The notes under the pieces are model-generated. The model was not told where the DNA came from. It saw only the letters and a list, made by a program, of their open reading frames with translations, and did no database searches. A stretch of 64,000 nucleotides of DNA from a virus. The position numbers and the translations under genes were made by a program. Positions 3,438 through 64,000 of this stretch are shown here, piece by piece (within the stretch, counting starts at the first letter, position 1; each line of letters starts with the position of its first letter). The DNA lies in the IMG/VR virus record IMGVR_UViG_3300020810_001175, positions 1 to 64,000 of that record. One strand, 5' to 3'.

Positions 3438-4400
3438 ATGGCTAGTTTAAAATCACTACTCGGAACAAAATCAGATGCATTCGTATCGGTTGAAGAATCG
3501 AATTTAGAAAAAGGACGTATTTACGTTTATACACCTGGTACTAACTATTCAAGACTATGGTGCGGATTCTGTTTCCATCCTGAAGTATCAGGAACTGCTG
3601 TCGTAGAAATTTGGGGAGCAGGTGGATCAGGCGCAGAGATGTGCTGTTGTGGTTTCGGCTTACCTGGAAACGCAGGTGCTTACGTTAAAAAAACAATTTC
3701 AATGGCTCCAGGAGACTATGTTTGCGGATATATCGGACAATCATGTGGTAACTCAGATGATTTATGTTTTAGAGGTTGTTCAGAAGCAACTCAAGTAAGA
3801 TTTTGTATTTCAAACGCAGAAACTTGTGCGTGTGCAGAAGGTGGAAGAGGAGGAATAACATTCTGTTCTACTAACTCATCATTTTATTGTTGTTACAGAG
3901 CAAATGGTTTCTGTGTAACAAGAACAAACAACGACAACTGCGGAATTATTTGTAACCAATGTAGTGGCGCTTGGTGTGCCAGAGGTTACTGTGGTCAAGA
4001 AAACAAATGTGGAAGAATTTCTTGTGTATCAGCGTTCGGCTGTTACCCATCATGTATTTGTATGTTTAACCACCATATTCCAACTCCAGCAGGAATGGGT
4101 TCTAAAGAAGGAAGAATGATCATCTACACAAACGATGATTTCAACGGAACTCAAAACTGGTCAGGTATGGGACATTATCATCATTTAGCAAACCTAGGTT
4201 CAGGCAGATTCCCAACAGGCGGTGTGCCTTGGGGCAGTTGCTGGGACGGCGGTGTTGCTTGTGGATGTTATCAAAACGATGGCTGTATTCCTCAAATGCC
4301 AATCGGTACAGGTGGAAGAGGACCTAACCCATGTCCAGGTGTTAGAGATCACGCAATCAGAGGTGGACACGGAGGAGTGCGAATCAAATTCGTAAGTTAG
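3438..4400 (+). CDS. Cys-rich, Gly-rich protein, paralogue 1 (putative fibre tip/adhesin)
   Basis: About 31 Cys in 320 aa (hand count); EIWGAGGSG..MCCC..GLPGNAGAYVKKT and C-terminal RGGHGGVRIKF Gly-rich domain frame. Confidence 0.6.
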   Translation: MASLKSLLGTKSDAFVSVEESNLEKGRIYVYTPGTNYSRLWCGFCFHPEVSGTAVVEIWGAGGSGAEMCCCGFGLPGNAGAYVKKTISMAPGDYVCGYIGQSCGNSDDLCFRGCSEATQVRFCISNAETCACAEGGRGGITFCSTNSSFYCCYRANGFCVTRTNNDNCGIICNQCSGAWCARGYCGQENKCGRISCVSAFGCYPSCICMFNHHIPTPAGMGSKEGRMIIYTNDDFNGTQNWSGMGHYHHLANLGSGRFPTGGVPWGSCWDGGVACGCYQNDGCIPQMPIGTGGRGPNPCPGVRDHAIRGGHGGVRIKFVS

Positions 4401-4404
4401 TATT

Positions 4405-5421
4405 ATGGCAAGTTTAACTACATTATTACAATCCAAGTATGATTTTGCAGTAGGCAATGAAACAAACCTTGAAAAAGGTAGAATTTATCAATATTATCCA
4501 GGAACATCACGAGGTACAAACTTTAGATGTCACGTGTGTTTCGTAGCACCATCAGACGGTACAGCCACTATTGAAATTTGGGGAGCGGCAGGTTCAGGTG
4601 CAGAGATGTGCTGTTGCGGTGGAGGAATTCCAGGTAACCCAGGCGGTTATGCACGTAAAACAATTACTATGGCATCAGGCTGTTTCATTTGTGGAGTAGT
4701 AGGTGTGTCATGTGGTAACGGTGATGATTTATGTTTTAGAGGTTGTTCAGAACCAACTCAAGTGTGTTGGTTTGGTAACGGCGGTGGAGACGGATGTATC
4801 TGTGCTCAAGGTGGTATAGGTGGAAGAAGTTGGTGTTCAACTGGTTCTTCAATCTACTGCTGTGCAGTAGCATCAGGTTTCTGTTACACACAAGGTGGTT
4901 CAACTTATTGTGGGATCATTTGTAACTTTATGGATTCAGCAAGTTGTCCACAGTTTTGTGCTTATGCATATGGTGGAGATGTGAACTGTTACGGTGGATT
5001 TAGTTGTCATTACTTTAGAGGATGTCAACCTAACTGTAACTGTAGACAAGTTCCAATTATTAAATTCCCTCCAGGAATGATTTCAACGCTGGGTGGTGAG
5101 GTACATTACACAATGGACTCAGACTCAGGTAGATCTCAATGGTCTGGAATGGGCGGATGGATGAATGCATCTCATGGATTTAACCTAGCAACACGTAACC
5201 CTACAACAGGTGGACCATACACGGCTTGTTGGGAAGGTAACAGAAGTTGCGGTTGTTATGAACAACAAGGATGTAACACTTTCTTTCCAGCAGGAATTCC
5301 AGGACAAGGTCCAACACCATGTGATGGCGTAAGAGATCACGCACACAGAGGTGGATATGGTTTAATTAGAATCAAGTTTGTATCACCAACAGATGAATAT
5401 GAACTGGTGGCGCAACCGTAG
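4405..5421 (+). CDS. Cys-rich, Gly-rich protein, paralogue 2
   Basis: Aligns by eye with 3438: MASL, NLEKGRIY, WGAAGSGAEMCCC, DDLCFRGCSE, CGCY, PCDGVRDH..RGG.G.IRIKFV. Confidence 0.6.
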   Translation: MASLTTLLQSKYDFAVGNETNLEKGRIYQYYPGTSRGTNFRCHVCFVAPSDGTATIEIWGAAGSGAEMCCCGGGIPGNPGGYARKTITMASGCFICGVVGVSCGNGDDLCFRGCSEPTQVCWFGNGGGDGCICAQGGIGGRSWCSTGSSIYCCAVASGFCYTQGGSTYCGIICNFMDSASCPQFCAYAYGGDVNCYGGFSCHYFRGCQPNCNCRQVPIIKFPPGMISTLGGEVHYTMDSDSGRSQWSGMGGWMNASHGFNLATRNPTTGGPYTACWEGNRSCGCYEQQGCNTFFPAGIPGQGPTPCDGVRDHAHRGGYGLIRIKFVSPTDEYELVAQP

Positions 5422-5438
5422 AAGGAGTAAATAGTATT

Positions 5439-6413
5439 ATGGCAAGTTTAAAAGGATTATTAACTACTAGAAACCCAGCAGAGATGATTGAAAACAATCT
5501 CGAAACTGGATATATCTATTCGTACACACCTGGTACTAACTACTCTGTATTTTGTAATGGTATTTGTTGGACGGCTAATCAAGCAGGTACAGCCACTATA
5601 GAAGTTTGGGGTGCGGGTGGTTCAGGTGCTAGAATGTGTTGTTGTGGTGATGGTTTACCAGGCAATGCAGGTGCTTATGTTAAAAAAACTATCACAGTAG
5701 AAGCAGATGACACAATAACTGGTCAAACAGGAAACAGTTGTTATTCTCACGATTTATGTTTTTCAGGATGTTCACAATCCTCAGGAATATGTTACATCAC
5801 AGCCAACAACGGTAATGGATGTGTATGTTCAAGAGGTGGATTTGGTGGGAAATCTATGTGTACAACAGGATCTTCTTTATTCTGTTGTTACAGAGCTCAA
5901 GGTTTCTGTTACACAAAATGTAACAATGACAACTGCGGATTAGTATGTAACGTTTGTAACGGACACTGGTGTGCATTAGCATACGGTGGAGATACAAATA
6001 AAAACTGTTGCGGACAATTTTCATGTGCTAGTTTCTTTGGATGCTGTCCACATTGTAAATGTCGGTTCCAACAACACGTGGCTATGCCAGCAGGACTATT
6101 TGCTGAAGAAGGAGCATTAATCACTTTCCAAAAAGAATCTGATGGAACTCCAATGTCACAATGGTCAGGTAACCAATTATTTCAATGGTATGCGGCACTT
6201 AACTTGGCAACTAAAACACCAAGACAAGGTAACCCAGATGCACACTGTTGGAGATCAACAAGATCTTGCGGATGTTATGAGATGCAAGGTTGTAACAACT
6301 ATCTGCCTGTAGGAGCAGGAGGTTTATCTCCTAACCCATGTCCAGATGTTAGAGATCATGGAATTAGAGGTGGATTTGGTGGAATAAGAATCAAGTTTGT
6401 TCCGTCAAGTTAA
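5439..6413 (+). CDS. Cys-rich, Gly-rich protein, paralogue 3
   Basis: Same motif order (MASL, NLETG, WGAGGSGARMCCC, CGCY, PCPDVRDHGIRGGFGGIRIKFV); TAAATA at 5428-5433. Confidence 0.6.
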   Translation: MASLKGLLTTRNPAEMIENNLETGYIYSYTPGTNYSVFCNGICWTANQAGTATIEVWGAGGSGARMCCCGDGLPGNAGAYVKKTITVEADDTITGQTGNSCYSHDLCFSGCSQSSGICYITANNGNGCVCSRGGFGGKSMCTTGSSLFCCYRAQGFCYTKCNNDNCGLVCNVCNGHWCALAYGGDTNKNCCGQFSCASFFGCCPHCKCRFQQHVAMPAGLFAEEGALITFQKESDGTPMSQWSGNQLFQWYAALNLATKTPRQGNPDAHCWRSTRSCGCYEMQGCNNYLPVGAGGLSPNPCPDVRDHGIRGGFGGIRIKFVPSS

Positions 6414-7873: not shown

Positions 7874-8827
7874 ATGAATACACAAACAAAAAGACCTAAG
7901 GCTTTTTTCTTAAATGGTGGTATGGGAAGAATAATTTCGGCCATTCCTGCTTTAGAAAAATATCAACAAGAATCGGGCGATGATAATTTTATAGTTGTGA
8001 TAGAAGGTATCTGTGATATTTTAAAAGGACATCCAACGTTAGATACAAAAACGTATGATATGTACCACAAGAATTTATTTCATACAAAACTGGTAAACAT
8101 GGATATTGTTAGTCCTGAACCTTATAGAGTTAATGATTATTTTAATCAAAAATGCAACATAGCCCAAGCATTTGATATTTTAATAAACAACAAAGGTATA
8201 AGAGATCTTCCAAAATCGACCTTAGTATTAAGCAAAGAAGAATTAATTGCTGGAAAAAAAGTAGTAGATGAAGTGAAAGAAAAATTAAAAAAAGAAAAAG
8301 TAGTTATTATACAGCCATTCGGTAGAGCAATAGAACAAATAGATGGATCATTTGTTGATAAGTCTAATAGAAGTTTAGAATTTTTTAATTTAAAAAATAT
8401 TATTAAAAAATTACAAGAAAAAGATTGGGCAGTAATTTTAATGAGCGAATTTGGAATAGATTTTAAAGATGCAGGATTTAAAGATGAAGTTGCTATGCCA
8501 GAAAAAGTAGAATTAAGACAGTGGGCGGCAATTATAAAATATGCTGATCATTTTTTAGGATGTGACTCATTGGGTCAACATCTTGCTTACAGTTTAGATA
8601 CACCAGCAAGTGTTGTGTTTGGTGCTACATATCCTGCAAATACATCATATCCACAATCAGAAAAATTTAATATTATTGATTTAGGACAAATGGACCGAGA
8701 ATATGATCCTATTAGAATCACATTCGATGAAAGAATAAGCAGAAAAAATGAAAGAATAATGTCAATGACTCCTGAAATAGAAGACTATGTAGTGGCGGCT
8801 GTTAATGGAGATCCAATAGAGGAATAA
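7874..8827 (+). CDS. GT-B glycosyltransferase, GT9/heptosyltransferase-like
   Basis: NGGMGRIISAIPA N-terminus; IIQPFG; LRQWAAIIKYADHFLGCDSLGQHLA (GT9 GxDSxxxHLA-like). Confidence 0.65.
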   Translation: MNTQTKRPKAFFLNGGMGRIISAIPALEKYQQESGDDNFIVVIEGICDILKGHPTLDTKTYDMYHKNLFHTKLVNMDIVSPEPYRVNDYFNQKCNIAQAFDILINNKGIRDLPKSTLVLSKEELIAGKKVVDEVKEKLKKEKVVIIQPFGRAIEQIDGSFVDKSNRSLEFFNLKNIIKKLQEKDWAVILMSEFGIDFKDAGFKDEVAMPEKVELRQWAAIIKYADHFLGCDSLGQHLAYSLDTPASVVFGATYPANTSYPQSEKFNIIDLGQMDREYDPIRITFDERISRKNERIMSMTPEIEDYVVAAVNGDPIEE

Positions 8828-8829
8828 CA

Positions 8830-10659
8830 ATGGACGATATAGAAAAATACAACAAAACAGGTTATATTGCGGCAATTGCCAGAGGACACAATGCAGGTGT
8901 ATGTTTACTAAAAGACGGAGAAGTTGTGTTTTCAATTGAAGAAGAAAGATTATCAAGAAGAAAATACGATGGCGGTCCATATGCTTCTATGGTTGAAATA
9001 TTAAAATACACCGACAAAATAGATTATCTAGTTGTTGCTCATACACAAAGTTTAAATGATAGATCAACAGGTAGAGTAGATTATTCAGGCGATGATGTTT
9101 ATACAGGTATTGCACGAAAACTTGGTCTAATTGATAGACATATCTATGAACAACCTCATCCACAAGTGATTGACTTATCACATATCCATCACAAACTTCA
9201 TGCCGCGTGTGCTTTTTATAGATCAGGATTTGACAAAGCAGTTGCAGTGATTGTGGACGGAGCAGGAACATTTATTCCAATAAAAAATAGTGTATCAGGT
9301 GAAACAACTGTGTTTGAAGTTGAAAGTATATTCAGTTGTGACTATCCAAACGACATATATGCTTTATACAAACATTATGGAACAGGCGAAGCCAGTCCAG
9401 GAGCATTTTACTCAGACTTTGCTTCAGATTCAATTGGTGAACCAGGTAAGACACACGAAGCATTATTCACTGACAGAGCAGGTATTGTAAAAGTTTATGA
9501 AGCAGTAACTCAATATTGCGGATTCACTGCCATTGAAGCAGGCAAAACTATGGGATTATTTCCTTATGGAAAACCCAATGATGTTATTCCACCATTATTC
9601 AAAAAAGAAGGTTACTATTCTTTATCGAATAGAAACTTAATTGTGCCAACATATCCAAACGCATCGATAGTTAACAGTCAACTGTATCCATTTATAGATG
9701 AAAATCCTGCTTCTGATCAAAAAGATGATTGGACACGTATGCAGAATAGAAGAGATTTAGCATATGCAGTACAAAAAGAAACACAAAAAGAATGTTTAGA
9801 TTTAATTTACAAAGCAGTACAGATGAGTGGTTGTAAGAATGTTGTATTTTCTGGAGGATATGGATTGAATTGTGTAGCCAACTATTATTATTTAGAAACT
9901 TTACGCAAAGATGGTATTAATTTTTATGCTGAGCCAGTATCAAACGATGCAGGTACGGCAATGGGAGCGGCAATGTTGTTCTATTACAGTCTAACACAGA
10001 CTAAAGAAAAGAAAGTTGCTGAACCTACACTGTACTTAGGTCCAAAAAGAACATACACAGATGAACAAATCAAACAGATTTGTGATAGACCTGGTGTAGA
10101 AGTAGTGGATGCTGACAATAAATCTGTTGTTGAGTTAATTGCAAATAAAAATATTGTGTCAATTTTTCAAGGACAATCAGAAAACGGTCCTAGAGCATTA
10201 GGTAACAGATCAATATTATATGATCCAAGAGATCCGGATGGTAAAGATCACGTTAATAGAGTAAAACATAGAGAATATTTCAGACCATTTGCTGGAACAA
10301 TACTACATGAATACGTGCATGAGTGGTTTGACTTGCGTGGAATGGAAGAAACTCCTCACATGATGTATGCTGTAAATTGTCAACCTGGCATAGAAGAAAA
10401 AATACCTAGTATAATACACGTGGATGGCACTTGCAGAATACAATCTGTAAAAAGAGAACAAAATCCACTGTACTATGATTTAATCAAAGAGTTTCATGCT
10501 CAAACAGAATGTCCAATCATATTCAATACCTCATTTAATTTAGGCGGAGAACCATTGGTTGAAACACTGGAAGATGCTGTAAGAACACTTCAGCACAGTG
10601 AAATTGAATACTTGTTCTTACCAGAGTATAAAAAATTAATAAAGGTAAAAAATGTCTAA
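8830..10659 (+). CDS. Carbamoyltransferase, NodU/CmcH/TobZ family
   Basis: EEERLSRRK, HHKLHAA, DGAG, EAGKTMGL, GGYGLNCVAN, NDAGTAMG, GPRALGNRS, KHREYFRPFA, HVDGTCRIQ, NTSFN. Confidence 0.92.
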   Translation: MDDIEKYNKTGYIAAIARGHNAGVCLLKDGEVVFSIEEERLSRRKYDGGPYASMVEILKYTDKIDYLVVAHTQSLNDRSTGRVDYSGDDVYTGIARKLGLIDRHIYEQPHPQVIDLSHIHHKLHAACAFYRSGFDKAVAVIVDGAGTFIPIKNSVSGETTVFEVESIFSCDYPNDIYALYKHYGTGEASPGAFYSDFASDSIGEPGKTHEALFTDRAGIVKVYEAVTQYCGFTAIEAGKTMGLFPYGKPNDVIPPLFKKEGYYSLSNRNLIVPTYPNASIVNSQLYPFIDENPASDQKDDWTRMQNRRDLAYAVQKETQKECLDLIYKAVQMSGCKNVVFSGGYGLNCVANYYYLETLRKDGINFYAEPVSNDAGTAMGAAMLFYYSLTQTKEKKVAEPTLYLGPKRTYTDEQIKQICDRPGVEVVDADNKSVVELIANKNIVSIFQGQSENGPRALGNRSILYDPRDPDGKDHVNRVKHREYFRPFAGTILHEYVHEWFDLRGMEETPHMMYAVNCQPGIEEKIPSIIHVDGTCRIQSVKREQNPLYYDLIKEFHAQTECPIIFNTSFNLGGEPLVETLEDAVRTLQHSEIEYLFLPEYKKLIKVKNV

Positions 10660-11635
10660 AAAAACAGCAATATTTTTAAATGGTGGTGCAGGTAGAATGG
10701 TTAGTTCTATACCAGCAGTAGAGAAATACCTAGAAGAAAATCCAGATAAAGATCCTATCCTAGTGTGTGAAGGTGGAACAGATGCTTTCAAAGGTCATCC
10801 TAAATTTCATTTCAGAGCATATGATCATTGGCACAAAAATTTGTTTCAAGATATGCTAAAAGATAGAGATTTAATTTCACCAGAACCATACAGAATATGG
10901 GAATACTACAATCAAAAGTGTAGTCTTGCTCAAGCATATGACATTGCTATCAATAATAAAGGAATTAGAGATTTACCTAAGCCAACCATACGATTAAGTA
11001 AAGAAGAGTTATTAATGGCAAGACAAATGATCACGGAAGTTAAGGAAAAGACAGGTAAAGATAAAATTATTGTATTTCAACCATTTGGCAGAGGTGCTCA
11101 CCCGGATCAAATCAGCGAAAAACAGAAGGAAGAAGGCAAACAACCTGACATCACTGATTCAACAGGAAGAAGTATAGAGTTAAAAAACATTTGGAACATT
11201 GTTAGAAAACTTGCTAAAAATTATGGCGTTATGGTGATGAGTGAATTTCCATTAGATTTTCAAAAACATATGTCTACTCCTATTGCTACTCCTATGAATA
11301 TACACCTAAGAATATGGATGGCTGTTATAAAACAAGCCAATCATTTTGTTGGTTGTGATTCTGTAGGTCAACACGTTGCTTATGCATTTGACAAAACAGC
11401 AACAGTGTTGGTTGGATCAACATACCCTATAAACACATCATTTCCAGATGCAGAAAATATAGACATTATTGATCTTGGCAAGGACGAAAGAGTGTATTCT
11501 CCCATCAGAATCACATCAGATGAAATGAGTGATAGACTGAATGAAGGCATTATGGCAATGGATGAACAAGCAGAAGAGCGTGTGATTAAATCTGTACAAA
11601 GAATGCTTAAACAGAGCAAAAATACCCAAAAATAA
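10652..11635 (+). CDS. GT-B glycosyltransferase, GT9-like; paralogue of 7874
   Basis: NGGAGRMVSSIPA; SPEPYR..EYYNQKC..AQAYDI.INNKGIRDLPK shared with 7874; FVGCDSVGQHVA. Confidence 0.65.
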   Translation: MSKKTAIFLNGGAGRMVSSIPAVEKYLEENPDKDPILVCEGGTDAFKGHPKFHFRAYDHWHKNLFQDMLKDRDLISPEPYRIWEYYNQKCSLAQAYDIAINNKGIRDLPKPTIRLSKEELLMARQMITEVKEKTGKDKIIVFQPFGRGAHPDQISEKQKEEGKQPDITDSTGRSIELKNIWNIVRKLAKNYGVMVMSEFPLDFQKHMSTPIATPMNIHLRIWMAVIKQANHFVGCDSVGQHVAYAFDKTATVLVGSTYPINTSFPDAENIDIIDLGKDERVYSPIRITSDEMSDRLNEGIMAMDEQAEERVIKSVQRMLKQSKNTQK

Positions 11636-57446: not shown

Positions 57447-58730
57447 ATGCGTTCAATCACAATAGAAGAGTGTCTAGAATTAATGGCAGGACTATCTGCC
57501 AAAGCAATCAATCCTGCGTTCATTGTACTGGATCGTGACAAAAAAATTATTTTCGATATTGCTAAAAAAGTTTATAAAGGTTCCGCATTAACTGATAGGC
57601 AACTAGAAGCAGTCAAAAAAATACTAATCACCAGATATAAATCACAATTCAAAATGCGAGGCATTGACCTGGAGAACAGTGTTAACACATTAAGGCAACC
57701 GTTAAGACATTTGGATAGAAGCGAATATATCAGATTGGAAGATGGATCTGCTTATGTAGAACCATATTGGTCCGGATTTATTCCTACCAAAGTTATTGTA
57801 ATAAGATTTCCGTTCAATATGACTTATACAAAAACAATCAACGAAGTTAGACGTTTACTAGGTCCTACTATTAGCAGATACTATGCTCAAAGATTAAAAG
57901 ACAAATATATTTTACCTTACACAGAAAAAGTAACGCACAAACTTCTATCAAAATTTAAGAACAAAATCAAAGACATAGATCCGATTCTAATCGATGTTTA
58001 CAATGAATGTGAAAAAATATCAAAAAATCCAGAAAAGTTTGTGCCGGGTATATATGATTATGAGATTAAACACAGTGCCGATATAATAACTCAACACTAT
58101 GTCGAATTTTTTGGAGAACCTGTTAAAGAAAATTTATGTTTGTACTATGATAGAAAAGAAAAAATGGGACTTCATTATTTTGATAACAAAGAACTAGACA
58201 GTTCCAAAAGTAATTTATCATCATTATCAAAAAAGATATTAGAACGACAGTGGCCTAGAATCAATTTAGACATAGACAAGTGGCATCTTCAACAAGTAAT
58301 CGATACCATAATAGAACTGAGAAGATTTCCTTTATTGGTTGTTTTACCCAGTAATACCGATGAAGACACTCTAAATCATCTTCATAAGACACACAAACTT
58401 TTTACAAACATTATACCTAGCGATGAAATATCTGTACTGTCAAGGTGCAAAAGCAATTCTGTTTTTGGTAAAGAATTTAATGATTACATTAAGGACAAAC
58501 AATTAAATAATTCACTTGCTAAAACAACAAAAATAGTGTATATTACAAATAAGAAGATACCAAAGCCTTTATTGACTTCTACTTGGGAACCTGAAGCAGT
58601 ATTGATATGTGACAACACTAGAAATTATTCTAAGGTTGACAAATATGTGAGTAATATCGATTTACAATTACAAGTCAACGGACAAGACAGTTTTTGGAAT
58701 CAACTACACTTTGGAAGCGAAACACTATGA
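57447..58730 (+). CDS. Hypothetical protein upstream of UvsW
   Basis: 427-aa ORF with its own promoter; ALTDRQ motif; no recognisable catalytic motif. Confidence 0.5.
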   Translation: MRSITIEECLELMAGLSAKAINPAFIVLDRDKKIIFDIAKKVYKGSALTDRQLEAVKKILITRYKSQFKMRGIDLENSVNTLRQPLRHLDRSEYIRLEDGSAYVEPYWSGFIPTKVIVIRFPFNMTYTKTINEVRRLLGPTISRYYAQRLKDKYILPYTEKVTHKLLSKFKNKIKDIDPILIDVYNECEKISKNPEKFVPGIYDYEIKHSADIITQHYVEFFGEPVKENLCLYYDRKEKMGLHYFDNKELDSSKSNLSSLSKKILERQWPRINLDIDKWHLQQVIDTIIELRRFPLLVVLPSNTDEDTLNHLHKTHKLFTNIIPSDEISVLSRCKSNSVFGKEFNDYIKDKQLNNSLAKTTKIVYITNKKIPKPLLTSTWEPEAVLICDNTRNYSKVDKYVSNIDLQLQVNGQDSFWNQLHFGSETL

Positions 58731-60184
58731 GATGTAAAATTATTATAAGCGACGAAGTCAATGTAAAAATTGAAGGACTGCCTGTTGAAGTGCGAAGAAA
58801 AATAGCAAACAAATTTAAATTTCAAGTGCCTTATGCTAGATATCTTCCTCAATATAAACTAGGACGTTGGGACGGTACAGTTGGTTTCTTTGGTCTAGGT
58901 GGTAATGGTTATGTCAATCATCTGGACAAGATCATTCAATATCTCAATGAAGCAGGTGTAGAAATCGAAGAAGTCGTAGACAAAAGAGAAAAATTTGATC
59001 TAACTTTTAGTAAAGTAGACAAAAACTTTTTCGGAAATAAAACGTGGCCCAAAGGACATCAATGCGAAGGACAAAAAATCGAATTACGTGACTACCAAGT
59101 GGACGTGATTAATAATTTTATCAAGGAGCCACAAAGTTTACAAGAAGTTGCCACAGGTGCTGGTAAAACAATTATCACTGCGGCATTGAGTAGCATATGT
59201 GAAAAGTTTGGAAGAACATTGGTTATTGTGCCTAACAAAGGATTAGTTACACAAACAGAAGAAGATTACATCAACGTAGGATTAGATGTTGGAGTTTATT
59301 TTGGAGATAGAAAAGAATTAAATCGAACACACACTATTTGTACATGGCAAAGTCTTAATGTATTAGATAAAAAATCTAAAGCAGGAGAATCTGTTTTTAG
59401 TTTAGCAGAGTTTTTAGACGGAGTAAAAACTGTTATAATAGATGAAGTGCACCAAGCAAAAGCAGAAGTTTTAAAAAAATTACTCACACATCATTTAAAA
59501 AATTCCCCTGTTCGTTGGGGTCTAACTGGAACTGTGCCCAAAGAACAATTTGAATTTCAAAGCATCTTAGCCAGCATTGGTCCAGTTGTTAATCAAATAT
59601 CAGCAAAAGAATTACAAGACAAAGGAGTGCTATCTAAATGTCATGTAAATGTTGTACAATTGGTAGATACCAACGTGTATAAAAATTATCAAGAAGAATT
59701 AAAGTTTTTAGTTACAGACGAAAAAAGAATTGAGTATTTAGGTAAACTTGTAAACAAAATAAAATCAAGCGGTAACACATTGGTATTAATTGATAGACTT
59801 ACAGCAGGTAAAAAATTATTAGAAATCATAGATGACAGTGTGTTTATTCAAGGAGAAACCAAATTAGCAGATCGTAAAGAACAGTATGACGAAATATCTA
59901 GCAGTACTAATAAAGTAATTATTGCCACGTACGGTGTAGCCAGTGTGGGAATTAATATTCCTAGAATATTCAATCTTGTATTGATTGAGCCAGGCAAATC
60001 ATTTGTAAGAGTAATTCAATCAATCGGCAGAGGAATACGTAAAGCCAAAGACAAAGACTTTGTACAGATATGGGATTTAACTTCAAGTTGTAAATTTGCT
60101 AAAAGACATTTAACACACAGAAAAAAATTTTACAAAGAAGCAAATTATCCTTTTACAATAGAGAAAGTGGATTGGACAAAATGA
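58727..60184 (+). CDS. uvsW: SF2 DNA helicase (UvsW-like)
   Basis: G.WDG, LRDYQ, ATGAGKT, IIDEVH, GLTGT, ATYGVASVGINIP, QSIGRGIR; start at the ATGA overlap. Confidence 0.9.
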   Translation: MRCKIIISDEVNVKIEGLPVEVRRKIANKFKFQVPYARYLPQYKLGRWDGTVGFFGLGGNGYVNHLDKIIQYLNEAGVEIEEVVDKREKFDLTFSKVDKNFFGNKTWPKGHQCEGQKIELRDYQVDVINNFIKEPQSLQEVATGAGKTIITAALSSICEKFGRTLVIVPNKGLVTQTEEDYINVGLDVGVYFGDRKELNRTHTICTWQSLNVLDKKSKAGESVFSLAEFLDGVKTVIIDEVHQAKAEVLKKLLTHHLKNSPVRWGLTGTVPKEQFEFQSILASIGPVVNQISAKELQDKGVLSKCHVNVVQLVDTNVYKNYQEELKFLVTDEKRIEYLGKLVNKIKSSGNTLVLIDRLTAGKKLLEIIDDSVFIQGETKLADRKEQYDEISSSTNKVIIATYGVASVGINIPRIFNLVLIEPGKSFVRVIQSIGRGIRKAKDKDFVQIWDLTSSCKFAKRHLTHRKKFYKEANYPFTIEKVDWTK

Positions 60185-61777: not shown

Positions 61778-62247
61778 CCAAAACTAACAAACTACCTTTG
61801 AAAGATATATTGGCGGCTATTGATATGAATGCCAAAAGCGTTTGGGACGAACTTTCAGATGACGATAGAAAACAAGTTTCTTTTTATTTGTTGAATAGAT
61901 ATGCTAGTGCTATCAAAGGAACCAAAGAACAAAAAGAATTACAAATTTTAAAAACCAACCAATATTACAATAAAAACTTTTTTACATTGAGCAAACATAA
62001 AAAACTATTGTGGTTTCTGTTGTGTATGACTGCTAGTGACAAAAAGAACATCAGATATCATGAATGGATTGGTTATAAGTTTAAAGAATCTAACAATAAC
62101 AAAGCATTTAAGTTTTTAGAAAAACTTTATCCTAATAAAAAAATTGACGAATTAAGATTATTAGCAAATATTAACACCACTAAAGAACTTAAAGAATTAG
62201 CAGAAGATTTAGGAATGAGTAAAGAGCAAATCAAAAAATTATTATGA
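61771..62247 (+). CDS. Clamp loader small subunit (T4 gp62-like)
   Basis: L..IL.AID, FYLLNRY.S, N..., L.W.LL, YHEWI..K, L.KLYP pattern; replication context. Confidence 0.55.
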   Translation: MVTKTNKLPLKDILAAIDMNAKSVWDELSDDDRKQVSFYLLNRYASAIKGTKEQKELQILKTNQYYNKNFFTLSKHKKLLWFLLCMTASDKKNIRYHEWIGYKFKESNNNKAFKFLEKLYPNKKIDELRLLANINTTKELKELAEDLGMSKEQIKKLL

Positions 62248-62927
62248 TAGAAAAGTTATACCCTTGCAAATATTGTAATGCTAAATTCGCCAAAGAAAAG
62301 ACATTATCAGTACATATGTGTGAGCAAAAAAGAAGATATCTACAGAAAGATGAACGTAGAGTACAATTAGGATTTCAAACTTTTGTAAGATTCTATGAAC
62401 TGTGTCAAAAAGTTACAACACCTAAAACTTATGAAGAGTTTTGTAAATCTCCATACTATACAGCATTTGTAAAATTTGGAAGTTTTATCAGTAATGTTAA
62501 ACCATTGTATCCAAACAAGTACATAGATTACGTTGTAACATCTGGAGTTAAACTTGATCACTGGTGTAGAGAAGAACTGTATCAAAAATATGCTATTGAT
62601 TTGATTTTAAGAGAACGAGTTGAAACAGCCATGGAAAGATCAATCAAAACAATGATGGATTGGGGTGATGAAAAACAAGCACCATGGAGTGATTATTTTA
62701 GATATGCTAGTTTGAATAGAGCAGTTGTAGATATAAAAGATGGTAAAATTTCTCCTTGGCTTATATTGAATTGTAAAACTGGAAAAGAAATGATGAAAAG
62801 ATTTAACGATGAACAATTACAAATGGTATATGCTATAATGGATCCCAGTCATTGGACATTAAGATTTAAAAGACTACCCGCAGATATTGAAATGGTTAAA
62901 GAAGTAATCAAGGAGGCAAATTTATAA
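62244..62927 (+). CDS. Hypothetical protein with N-terminal Zn finger
   Basis: YPCKYCNAKFAKEKTLSVHMC (C2H-C zinc finger); GKISPW motif. Confidence 0.55.
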   Translation: MIEKLYPCKYCNAKFAKEKTLSVHMCEQKRRYLQKDERRVQLGFQTFVRFYELCQKVTTPKTYEEFCKSPYYTAFVKFGSFISNVKPLYPNKYIDYVVTSGVKLDHWCREELYQKYAIDLILRERVETAMERSIKTMMDWGDEKQAPWSDYFRYASLNRAVVDIKDGKISPWLILNCKTGKEMMKRFNDEQLQMVYAIMDPSHWTLRFKRLPADIEMVKEVIKEANL

Positions 62928-63493
62928 TGTTCGATATTGATATAGACTTTGCTGATAGAAATGTGTTGTTAGAAAAACTTAAACACAGAATAGCAAAATT
63001 AGACACAGAAAAAAAACATAACACAGGTGTTTACTTCACAGAAATTCCACACGACCCAGCAACAAATATGGCAACAATAGATTACGAAACTGCTGAAGAA
63101 AGAAACTATTTTAAAATAGATTGTCTCAACGTAAGCATATACAAAGATGTAAAGGATGAGGATCATTTGAATCAATTGATGAATAAGGAACCTGTATGGG
63201 AATTGTTAGAAGCAAAAGAATTCAGCGATCAGGTATTTCATTTGAACGGTCATAATGAAATATTGAAAAGATTAAAACCGAAAAATATAGAACAACTGGC
63301 GGCTGTATTAGCAATCATCAGACCAAGCAAAAGATATCTACTAAACAAAGATTGGGATTCTATTATGAAGGAAGTATGGGTCAAGCCCACTGATGGATAT
63401 TATTTTAAAAAATCACACGCAACGTCATATGCTGTGGCAGTTGTGATACACATGAATTTAATCTGCGAACAATTACAAAACAATGACAAGTAA
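62927..63493 (+). CDS. Minimal DNA polymerase III alpha (DnaE)-like catalytic core
   Basis: FDIDIDF, KHNTGVY, FKIDCL, LAIIRP and YYFKKSHATSY match the DnaE motifs PDxDxDF, KHAGGV, KxDFLGL, ALYRPG and YGFNKSH in order within 188 aa. Confidence 0.8.
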   Translation: MFDIDIDFADRNVLLEKLKHRIAKLDTEKKHNTGVYFTEIPHDPATNMATIDYETAEERNYFKIDCLNVSIYKDVKDEDHLNQLMNKEPVWELLEAKEFSDQVFHLNGHNEILKRLKPKNIEQLAAVLAIIRPSKRYLLNKDWDSIMKEVWVKPTDGYYFKKSHATSYAVAVVIHMNLICEQLQNNDK

Positions 63494-63737
63494 AATAAGA
63501 AGAAGTTTAGTTAAAACATTAACCTGGAGAATAGTTGCTACTACCGATACATTTATAATTGCTTGGTTGATAACAGGAGAATGGACATGGGCCAGTGCTA
63601 TTGCTGGAGTCGAAGTTTTAACAAAAATGTTTTTGTATTATGGTCATGAGAGAGTGTGGAATAAAATTGCTTGGGCTAAAGAATACAAAGAACCACACAC
63701 TACTATATTCCCTTATAAAGAAGATAAACGTTGGTAA
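63483..63737 (+). CDS. DUF2061-like small membrane protein
   Basis: RSLVKTLTWRIVAT.DT......ITG....A..IAG.E...K..LYY.HER.W. Confidence 0.8.
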   Translation: MTSKIRRSLVKTLTWRIVATTDTFIIAWLITGEWTWASAIAGVEVLTKMFLYYGHERVWNKIAWAKEYKEPHTTIFPYKEDKRW

Positions 63738-64000
63738 TTATTTAGGTTTTCTAACCAGTTGAACCGACTTCCTTTTGCTACGCTTCATAGCAAGATTGCC
63801 GAGACTGGTGACTGGACCAATCTTCACTTTCACATCTTTTGTATTCATCATCATTAAAACACTACGGAATTTTTGTAATTCTTTACGTAAAAAGATGCCA
63901 ATTGGTACCATTCTATTGGATTCCCACCACCATGTTTTACATAATTCCATGAAAGTTTCTCTCGAATTGGTGTGAATTTCTTCATATATGTACATGGACG
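63738..64000 (-). CDS. Hypothetical protein, probably truncated at the window end
   Basis: Open frame reaching the window edge; WWWESNR..PI.IFL motif. Confidence 0.55.
   Translation of the reverse strand, partial: SMYIYEEIHTNSRETFMELCKTWWWESNRMVPIGIFLRKELQKFRSVLMMMNTKDVKVKIGPVTSLGNLAMKRSKRKSVQLVRKPK

Follow-up and report, generated by a model that had tools for sequence, protein, structure and literature searches.

A 188-residue viral protein as the probable C-terminal subunit of a two-gene minimal DnaE-type nucleotidyltransferase of jumbo phages

We examined an open reading frame (ORF) of 188 amino acids at positions 62,927 to 63,493 of a 64,000-nucleotide stretch of viral DNA, which covers positions 1 to 64,000 of IMG/VR record IMGVR_UViG_3300020810_001175 and is called the window below. 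Our analysis indicates that this ORF probably encodes the C-terminal subunit (C-half) of a two-gene minimal DnaE-type nucleotidyltransferase of the Rak2/121Q/PA5oct/Atu_ph07-like (group 2.2) jumbo phages. It is a real, strongly conserved gene and belongs to a family that has already been described computationally: the available part of that account attributes to group 2.2 jumbo phages a minimal DNA polymerase III (Pol III) alpha subunit split into two distant genes (Iyer et al., 2021, Viruses 13:63, PMC7824862). The annotation of the window is thus corrected from a 188-residue polymerase to half an enzyme. The family is very common in environmental jumbo phages; it is the smallest known derivative of a bacterial replicative polymerase, and the only derivative whose Pol-beta-like catalytic core is itself divided between two genes.

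In the arrangement that we propose, the C-half and a separately encoded N-terminal part (N-half) would assemble non-covalently into one Pol-beta-like domain. The composite active site would take its GS loop from the N-half and its carboxylates and sugar gate from the C-half, and neither half would be active alone. Judged from the sequences, such an obligate heterodimer is very probable.

Homology, fold and conservation of the C-half

The ORF, the signal that precedes it and the motifs within it are as follows.

62927..63493, plus strand: minimal DnaE C-half ORF, 188 amino acids, ATG start (ORF listing of the window)
62910-62916, plus strand: Shine-Dalgarno-like AAGGAGG, 10 nucleotides before the ATG (read from the DNA)
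62933-62947, plus strand: DIDID, residues 3-7 (D3, D5, D7), equivalent to E. coli D401/D403/D405; two catalytic aspartates and a DnaE-specific third aspartate
63014-63031, plus strand: KHNTGV, residues 30-35 (read in the translation)
63113-63127, plus strand: KIDCL, residues 63-67 (read in the translation)
63113..63121, plus strand: K63-I-D65, equivalent to E. coli K553-F-D555, which holds the third catalytic aspartate (aligned to VKFDF of 2hnh_A)
63311-63325, plus strand: AIIRP, residues 129-133 (read in the translation)
63320..63325, plus strand: R132-P133, the fingers 'RP' (aligned to the LFRPG motif of E. coli alpha, which ends at G641)
63401-63418, plus strand: YFKKSH, residues 159-164 (read in the translation)
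63413..63418, plus strand: S163-H164, equivalent to E. coli S759-H760 (profile alignment)

The likeness of this protein to DnaE is homology, far beyond chance. Residues 2-182 match positions 7-194 of the 197-position PHROGs profile phrog_11778 ('DNA polymerase') with an E-value of 7.9e-62, and on the full-length polymerase profile phrog_405 the protein falls at positions 577-678. In Pfam, the DNA_pol3_finger match is sub-threshold (E 2e-4; 21.2 bits against a 22-bit cut-off), and PF07733, the GS-motif nucleotide-binding (NTP-binding) segment, has no match in the 188-residue chain. We built a profile of 82 sequences from the query and 81 diverse homologues of 175-225 amino acids, taken from 150 listed cluster representatives of which the other 69 were dropped as fragments or, in the case of P0243, as longer. 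At E<=1 this profile picks out nine PDB sequences, every one of them Pol III alpha; the best E-value is 1.6e-5. The size of the family is shown by 90%-identity clusters, of which 7988 out of 8000 scored candidates match the C-half at E<=1e-3; when clustered at 50% identity, 427 clusters match. Many homologues carry the Joint Genome Institute (JGI) label 'DNA polymerase III alpha subunit'.

The predicted fold points the same way. An AlphaFold2 model based on the 82-sequence alignment has a mean per-residue confidence (pLDDT) of 96.7 and a global confidence (pTM) of 0.89. The top 12 Foldseek rows obtained with it are all Pol III alpha, and the top 14 entries of VIA-align are all C-family polymerases (DnaE of Thermus, Mycobacterium and E. 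coli, and PolC), with Z-scores of 6.3-9.8, 180-184 of the 188 residues aligned and deviations of 3.2-4.4 Å; the next fold scores Z 3.4. With E. coli Pol III alpha (2HNH) and the Thermus aquaticus enzyme (3E0D/2HPI), the model shares homologous palm strands and finger helices (Z 9.1-9.8, root-mean-square deviation 3.5-3.9 Å over 180-184 residues), and PolC of the Firmicute Geobacillus kaustophilus (3F2B) has the same fold (Z 9.7). Structurally, model residues 1-186 correspond to E. coli alpha 400-784. This range gives the equivalents of D3, D5 and D7, and those of K63/D65, R132-P133 and S163-H164 come from counting along the profile alignment. The equivalents of D401, D403, D405, K553, D555 and S759-H760 of bacterial DnaE are thus all kept in the phage protein.

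The published work available to us in part gives these positions their meaning. D401, D403 and D555 are described as absolutely conserved across family C, and D405 as a mark of the DnaE groups that is replaced by Asn in PolC (available part of PMC3919608). The phage protein is DnaE-like because D7 is Asp where PolC has Asn. H760, in the O-helix of the fingers, is the proposed steric gate that excludes ribonucleotides (available part of PMC8485763).

These positions are among the best conserved of the protein. Across the diverse full-length alignment, K63, D65, R132 and P133 are invariant (82/82), D3, D5 and D7 are kept in 80, 80 and 79 sequences, and H31, G34, W91, K135, K161 and H164 in at least 90%, H164 itself in 79. 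In the 120 closest cluster representatives, D3, D5, D7, H31, G34, K63, D65, R132 and P133 are present without exception and H164 is kept in 119. When all 150 representatives are counted, fragments included, the aspartates are kept in 118/124, 119/125, 118/126 and 126/142 of the sequences that span their columns, the exceptions being mostly gaps. The ratio of nonsynonymous to synonymous substitution (dN/dS, NG86) has a median of 0.088 and a maximum of 0.20 over 568 pairs drawn from 58 unique IMG/VR copies with dS between 0.05 and 2, values that are approximate since dS is near saturation (median 1.43).

Much of DnaE is missing all the same. Nothing in the C-half corresponds to E. coli alpha before residue 400 or after about 784. 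Within that range, E. coli 400-538 is represented by about 53 phage residues, with about 85 deleted, and the finger segment 642-739 is replaced by 11 profile positions, with about 87 deleted (profile alignment). The domain limits reportedly set by Lamers and colleagues in 2006 are 271-432 and 511-560 for the palm, 433-510 for the thumb and 561-911 for the fingers, and by these limits the first deletion falls where the thumb lies. Compared with the 1160 residues of bacterial DnaE, the 188-residue phage chain is without the PHP, thumb, HhH/clamp-binding, OB and tau-binding domains and without 642-739, and in its relatives the GS-loop half is on a separate polypeptide.

Most of what the initial annotation had read from the sequence is borne out by these results. 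All five motifs that it placed in DnaE order (DIDID, KHNTGV, KIDCL, AIIRP and YFKKSH) are present in the ORF, and the hundreds of residues that it found missing between them agree with a chain of 188 residues spanning 385 of E. coli alpha. The TAATG start that it described is confirmed in the DNA: the TAA of the upstream ORF (62925-62927) and the ATG (62927-62929) have one base in common, and the translation begins M-F-D-I-D, two residues ahead of the first catalytic aspartate. The gene that follows, at 63483-63737, is as unrelated as stated, a DUF2061 membrane protein (PF09834, E 7e-23). The claim that the ORF is not a frameshifted remnant also holds, the start lying 1-12 residues ahead of the first Asp in the relatives read and dN/dS being about 0.09. 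The structure prediction of the protein alone and the dN/dS analysis that it suggested give, respectively, a confident model whose top matches are only C-family polymerases and no sign of relaxed selection, with the aspartates intact in all 120 close homologues. Its central proposal, that the protein derives from DnaE, is part of a Pol-beta-like nucleotidyltransferase and retains the metal-binding aspartates, is upheld by the phrog_11778, PDB and fold matches alike.

A separate gene for the N-half

The part of the fold that the C-half lacks is found in its relatives. PF07733 matches one small ORF each in 121Q, PA5oct and Atu_ph07 (E 2-5e-10; 180, 169 and 177 amino acids), and all three ORFs end in GxGRGSxxxSYxLxxIGxHxVxSxKYxLDxxEFL(K/E). 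This N-half, of about 170 amino acids, is phrog_11127 in PHROGs, and an alignment-based scan of IMG/VR for it confirmed 528 relatives among 597 matched stretches. A profile of 50 N-half proteins finds seven PDB sequences, all of them Pol III alpha, and aligns its positions 101-172 with E. coli 321-392; its segment W141-S148 (WGVGRGSS) is invariant, GRGS being present in 50/50 sequences.

The two halves fit end to end. On phrog_405 they are collinear, the N-half at 363-429 and the C-half at 577-678, and the split point lies between E. coli ~392 and 399, within the Pol-beta-like core, so that in the relatives the GS loop is on the N-half protein and the DxD strand on the C-half protein. In all 80 loci kept, the N-half ORF ends 0-3 residues after EF[LMF][KR], just past the GRGS loop. 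The two genes lie on the same strand, 31-214 kb apart, in all seven genomes in which both were located: 31 kb in 121Q, 43.5 kb in PA5oct and 182 kb in Atu_ph07 among the cultured phages, and about 214 kb in G008, 184 kb in G010, 187 kb in G009 and 189 kb in G007 among the IMG/VR contigs. Four of the five large IMG/VR contigs with an N-half also carry a C-half, including all three that are complete; the exception is 63% complete. One protein, P0243, is a fused form of 375 amino acids with both parts, in which the PF07733 match crosses the junction. Taken together, these observations identify the 188-residue protein, almost certainly, as the C-half of a split minimal DnaE. It carries the metal-binding palm strands, the reduced fingers and the sugar gate of a DnaE-type active site, and the triphosphate-binding part is found in the relatives on the co-occurring N-half.

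The search for longer forms returned one hit among 278 candidates, P0391 (350 amino acids, on one 2-kb contig). We rejected it as a fused form: an unrelated N-terminal part precedes the last 57% of a C-half without its DxD, and it is probably an assembly chimera.

The complete 188-residue 'minimal DnaE' of the initial annotation is therefore not sustained, the helix-GRGS part being encoded by the separate phrog_11127 gene in seven genomes. That annotation had also envisaged that the missing domains might be found elsewhere as a conventional split DnaE. The GS-loop part is indeed found elsewhere, and the split is of another kind, with PHP and HhH domains in none of the five relatives and no room for an intein. 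The PHP domain (PF02811) was found in 0/5 relatives with controls positive in 14/14 genomes, and the HhH domain (HHH_6, PF14579) likewise in 0/5 with positive controls, the OB domain not having been searched for separately. Because PHP and HhH are found in none of these relatives, the system is not a conventional DnaE scattered over the genome.

As to the system described in 2021, the family, size, split point and motifs are the same as far as the available part of that paper goes, and nothing essential differs; the window copy comes from an uncultured, AT-rich fragment and is 38-52% identical to cultured members. Our analysis adds to what that part of the paper describes the exact junction, the conserved steric-gate histidine, dN/dS values, the single fused form and the conserved zinc-finger (Zn-finger) neighbour.

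Two further observations concern loci around the N-half and its homologues. In 121Q, PA5oct and Atu_ph07 (L007:2163-2489, L008:2081-2407 and L009:744-1079, minus strand), two ORFs come after the N-half gene: first a conserved one of 113-136 amino acids and then one of 108-111 amino acids, which resembles a GroES/gp31-type co-chaperonin by eye only. The other is a contiguous 595-amino-acid DnaE-like gene without PHP, beside a DnaB-type helicase, in G004 (L090:544-2331, minus strand) and also in G003 (L091). It matches PF07733 (E 1.5e-43) and the fingers (E 2.1e-15), and its similarity to the mini-DnaE is remote (hhalign probability 24.7). The C-half of the phages that host it is 73% identical; these phages therefore have two different C-family derivatives.

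Predicted activity and alternative explanations

Among the reactions that the pair could perform, dNTP-dependent, templated DNA synthesis would be the likeliest because the steric-gate histidine and the template-side finger helices are kept. Going by the residues retained, we lean towards templated synthesis rather than rely on it. Such synthesis would be short-patch and distributive, as in repair, in the filling of gaps or in some step at the fork, because the thumb, clamp-binding, OB and PHP domains are lost, and bulk replication would be left to the family B replicase of the phage. Both that polymerase and the N-half of this phage would lie off the contig. Should the pair prove active, it would set the lower limit of what C-family catalysis requires and would reveal what a T4-like replisome gains from a second polymerase, and the family is still a good experimental target.

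Several points weigh against this reading. The pairing is inferred from relatives because the N-half was not found on the contig of this phage: in its own 84,279-base record, PF07733 has no match at E<=10 and phrog_11127 none at E<=1, and tblastn of the 121Q and PA5oct N-halves against the contig gives a best E-value of 0.99. The contig of the N-half locus L114 does not match 8 kb from near the end of the record (contig 76001-84000), and its N-half therefore stands in from a relative. The N-half was likewise not found in the partial relatives G001, G002 and G005 (40-92 kb). Its absence is what a fragment would give, since the record holds only 20.8 kb downstream and 62.9 kb upstream of the gene. 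The fused P0243 is a singleton on one 2.4-kb contig with no relative in IMG/VR, and the near-saturation of dS noted above also counts here. Literature searches returned no functional study or activity test for any member after the 2021 computational description, and the PA5oct omics paper (PMC7318152) contains nothing on this gene, the term 'DNA polymerase' occurring 0 times. The deletions themselves bear on activity as well. In full-length enzymes the deleted 642-739 segment holds conserved arginines that contact the incoming triphosphate, and without them polymerase activity may be weak or altered.

The most serious alternative is that the pair is a nucleotidyltransferase rather than a templated polymerase, acting as a terminal transferase, as a primer-like initiator or in transfer to DNA ends or protein. 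In its favour, many reactions of Pol-beta-fold enzymes need no template, the pair has neither a thumb nor any clamp- or duplex-binding domain and lacks most of the fingers, and a complete family B replicase is already at hand in these phages. We nevertheless consider it unlikely, if well ahead of the remaining alternatives, since the elements that are kept (S163-H164 in the O-helix, and the RP motif) are those turned towards the primer-template and the dNTP sugar, and all relatives examined have the gene placed with the UvsW helicase on one side and the primase/DnaB genes on the other. That the pair is instead a catalytically silent relic, a scaffold or a regulator in the replisome would suit its extreme domain reduction and the fact that activity has been shown for no member. 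This is improbable, however, as the residues that serve catalysis only are the most conserved (K63, D65, R132 and P133 in all 82 sequences, D3, D5 and D7 in 79-80) and the GRGS of the N-half does not vary in any of the 50 sequences.

An equally improbable alternative is that of the initial annotation, in which the 188 residues form a minimal enzyme in their own right, any completion coming from the coupled Zn-finger protein encoded at 62244. The Zn-finger gene stands upstream of the C-half in 71/71 loci and in three cultured phages, with a matching spread, and its product is under purifying selection (dN/dS 0.108) and has a fold that matches nothing solved. The chain, however, is without the GS-loop half of its own fold, for which the relatives have a dedicated gene; the two genes abut in only 4 of the 71 loci, 0.03 to more than 1.2 kb separating them elsewhere; and the phages all belong to one clade, so their co-occurrence may be shared descent. 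Least credible, to the point of being nearly negligible, is an intein-split conventional dnaE or a decayed fragment of a full-length dnaE. The gene is split inside the palm, and a contiguous 595-residue DnaE-like gene exists in some relatives, but selection is strongly purifying, 7988/8000 candidates are homologues of the same length class and the 595-residue gene is only distantly similar. In the cyanobacterial intein-split DnaE (DnaE-n/DnaE-c), two distant genes encode full-size halves that are ligated by a split intein. The phage system likewise uses two distant genes, whereas its halves carry no intein sequence and together come to only about 360 amino acids. A split intein at the phage junction was rejected for lack of room, the N-half ending 0-3 residues after EFL[KR] (80/80) and the C-half starting 1-12 residues before the first Asp. 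The two-gene, heterodimeric DnaE-type nucleotidyltransferase is thus the explanation that we retain.

Genomic setting and neighbouring genes

The window lies within an 84,279-base IMG/VR record that CheckV rates 24% complete and whose GC content is 36%. PHROG scans of 79 ORFs identify a myovirus tail sheath, a tail tube and a large terminase, together with a T4-like replication set. The neighbouring and replication genes are listed below, by start position alone where no end is given.

42206: gp32-type single-stranded DNA-binding protein (SSB; PHROG match)
43233: UvsX (PHROG match)
44520: UvsY (PHROG match)
58694..60184, plus strand: UvsW-like DNA helicase (phrog_16, E 4.3e-77), which opens the syntenic replication block
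62244..62927, plus strand: CCHC Zn-finger protein, 227 amino acids, all-helical (phrog_11058, E 7.7e-61)
63483..63737, plus strand: DUF2061 small membrane protein (PF09834, E 7e-23), downstream in 26/65 related loci
63738..63995, minus strand: convergent gene of 85 amino acids, function unknown, which bounds the module (phrog_11637, E 8.1e-23)
contig 64962: primase, DnaG-type (PHROG match)
contig 67009: DnaB-type helicase (PHROG match)

The order of UvsW, small genes, C-half, convergent small gene, structural gene, primase and helicase is common to PA5oct, Atu_ph07 and 121Q; in 121Q, where the gene order is the same, gene 10 is annotated as a UvsW-like helicase. The group 2.2 system described before has the same setting, beside UvsW, primase and a DnaB-type helicase, in phages with a family B polymerase. 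By tblastn against 50,697 phage records, the C-half is found in 96 records at 38-52% identity, including PA5oct-like Pseudomonas phages, Atu_ph07, Phosso and the 121Q/PBECO4 group. Among the 40 records listed, all are 284-490 kb in size except one of 94 kb. The T4-like setting with a B-family polymerase that the initial annotation assumed is in keeping with the replication set of the record and with the family B polymerase found in 5/5 relatives searched. The search of the genome itself that it proposed, for polB, primase and other dnaE segments, yields the primase at contig 64962, and neither a family B polymerase (PF00136) nor an N-half was found on the 84,279-base fragment. Its 'gp62-like neighbour' finds no support, ORFs 61002, 61508 and 61771 having no Pfam family below E 0.08 and matching only PHROGs of unknown function.

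The Zn-finger protein encoded immediately upstream of the C-half has an N-terminal finger, C8-C11-H24-C26, that is invariant in 48 sequences, and it has 5285 homologues. Its AlphaFold2 model (pLDDT 94) is all-helical; against the PDB it gives no Foldseek hit at E<=1e-3 and a best Z of 4.4 in the wide VIA search. Atlas matches for the model are unnamed viral clusters and one cluster in which 11% of the members carry zf-C2H2. The 71 IMG/VR loci in which the gene was found upstream are those with more than 2.6 kb of upstream sequence, and the cultured phages that share the arrangement are again PA5oct, Atu_ph07 and 121Q. In the phage database the two genes have a matching spread: 93 records for the Zn-finger gene and 96 for the C-half, divided among the genera in the same way.

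The distance between the two genes varies from locus to locus: it is at most 30 nucleotides in 4 loci, 31-500 in 11, 501-1200 in 43 and more than 1200 in 13, and the genes abut or nearly abut in G008 and G010. Where they are apart, in the relatives examined, one to three genes are inserted (L043:4165-5931; L019:5348-6001) with the same overlapping stop/start packing, among them a 2-oxoglutarate-Fe(II) (2OG-Fe(II)) oxygenase (PF13759), an RpiB/LacAB protein (PF02502) and an endonuclease III-like HhH-GPD protein with an Fe-S motif. The interval looks like a gene-insertion hotspot. Because the genes abut in only 4/71 loci and the inserts are packed equally tightly, the TAATG junction of the window is ordinary gene packing. 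A functional link between the Zn-finger protein and the C-half is possible. The mini-DnaE might even be a three-part system, in which the Zn-finger protein, as a subunit dedicated to binding DNA or to targeting, replaces the missing thumb and clamp-binding domains and could direct the heterodimer to gaps, primer ends or modified DNA, and in which the division of the core between two distant genes may confine the activity to times when both are expressed; we regard this extension as quite unlikely, a little less so than the two improbable alternatives above.

On the other side of the C-half, the DUF2061 gene is a variable passenger and not part of the system. The convergent phrog_11637 gene is present in 65/65 related loci and in PA5oct, Atu_ph07 and 121Q, with a dN/dS of 0.166. 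Contigs from four metatranscriptome runs (four studies) cover the C-half gene at >=99% identity, and one of them, of 1398 nucleotides, spans 62545-63942; contigs of RNA libraries are no proof of transcription, and we do not count these as evidence.

The only hit among reference prokaryote genomes is locus L180 (JBDNIA010000151.1, a 44.6-kb contig), 67% identical, in a metagenome-assembled genome of Crocinitomicaceae (Bacteroidota). This contig is probably phage and is a weak clue to the host. Elsewhere in the window, three tandem phrog_4205 paralogues lie at 3438-6413, and two phrog_8954 paralogues stand on either side of a Nol-like carbamoyltransferase (7874-11635). Several genes of the window, of the sugar-nucleotide, 2OG-oxygenase, radical-SAM and methyltransferase kinds, may act in the modification of DNA or of surface glycans.

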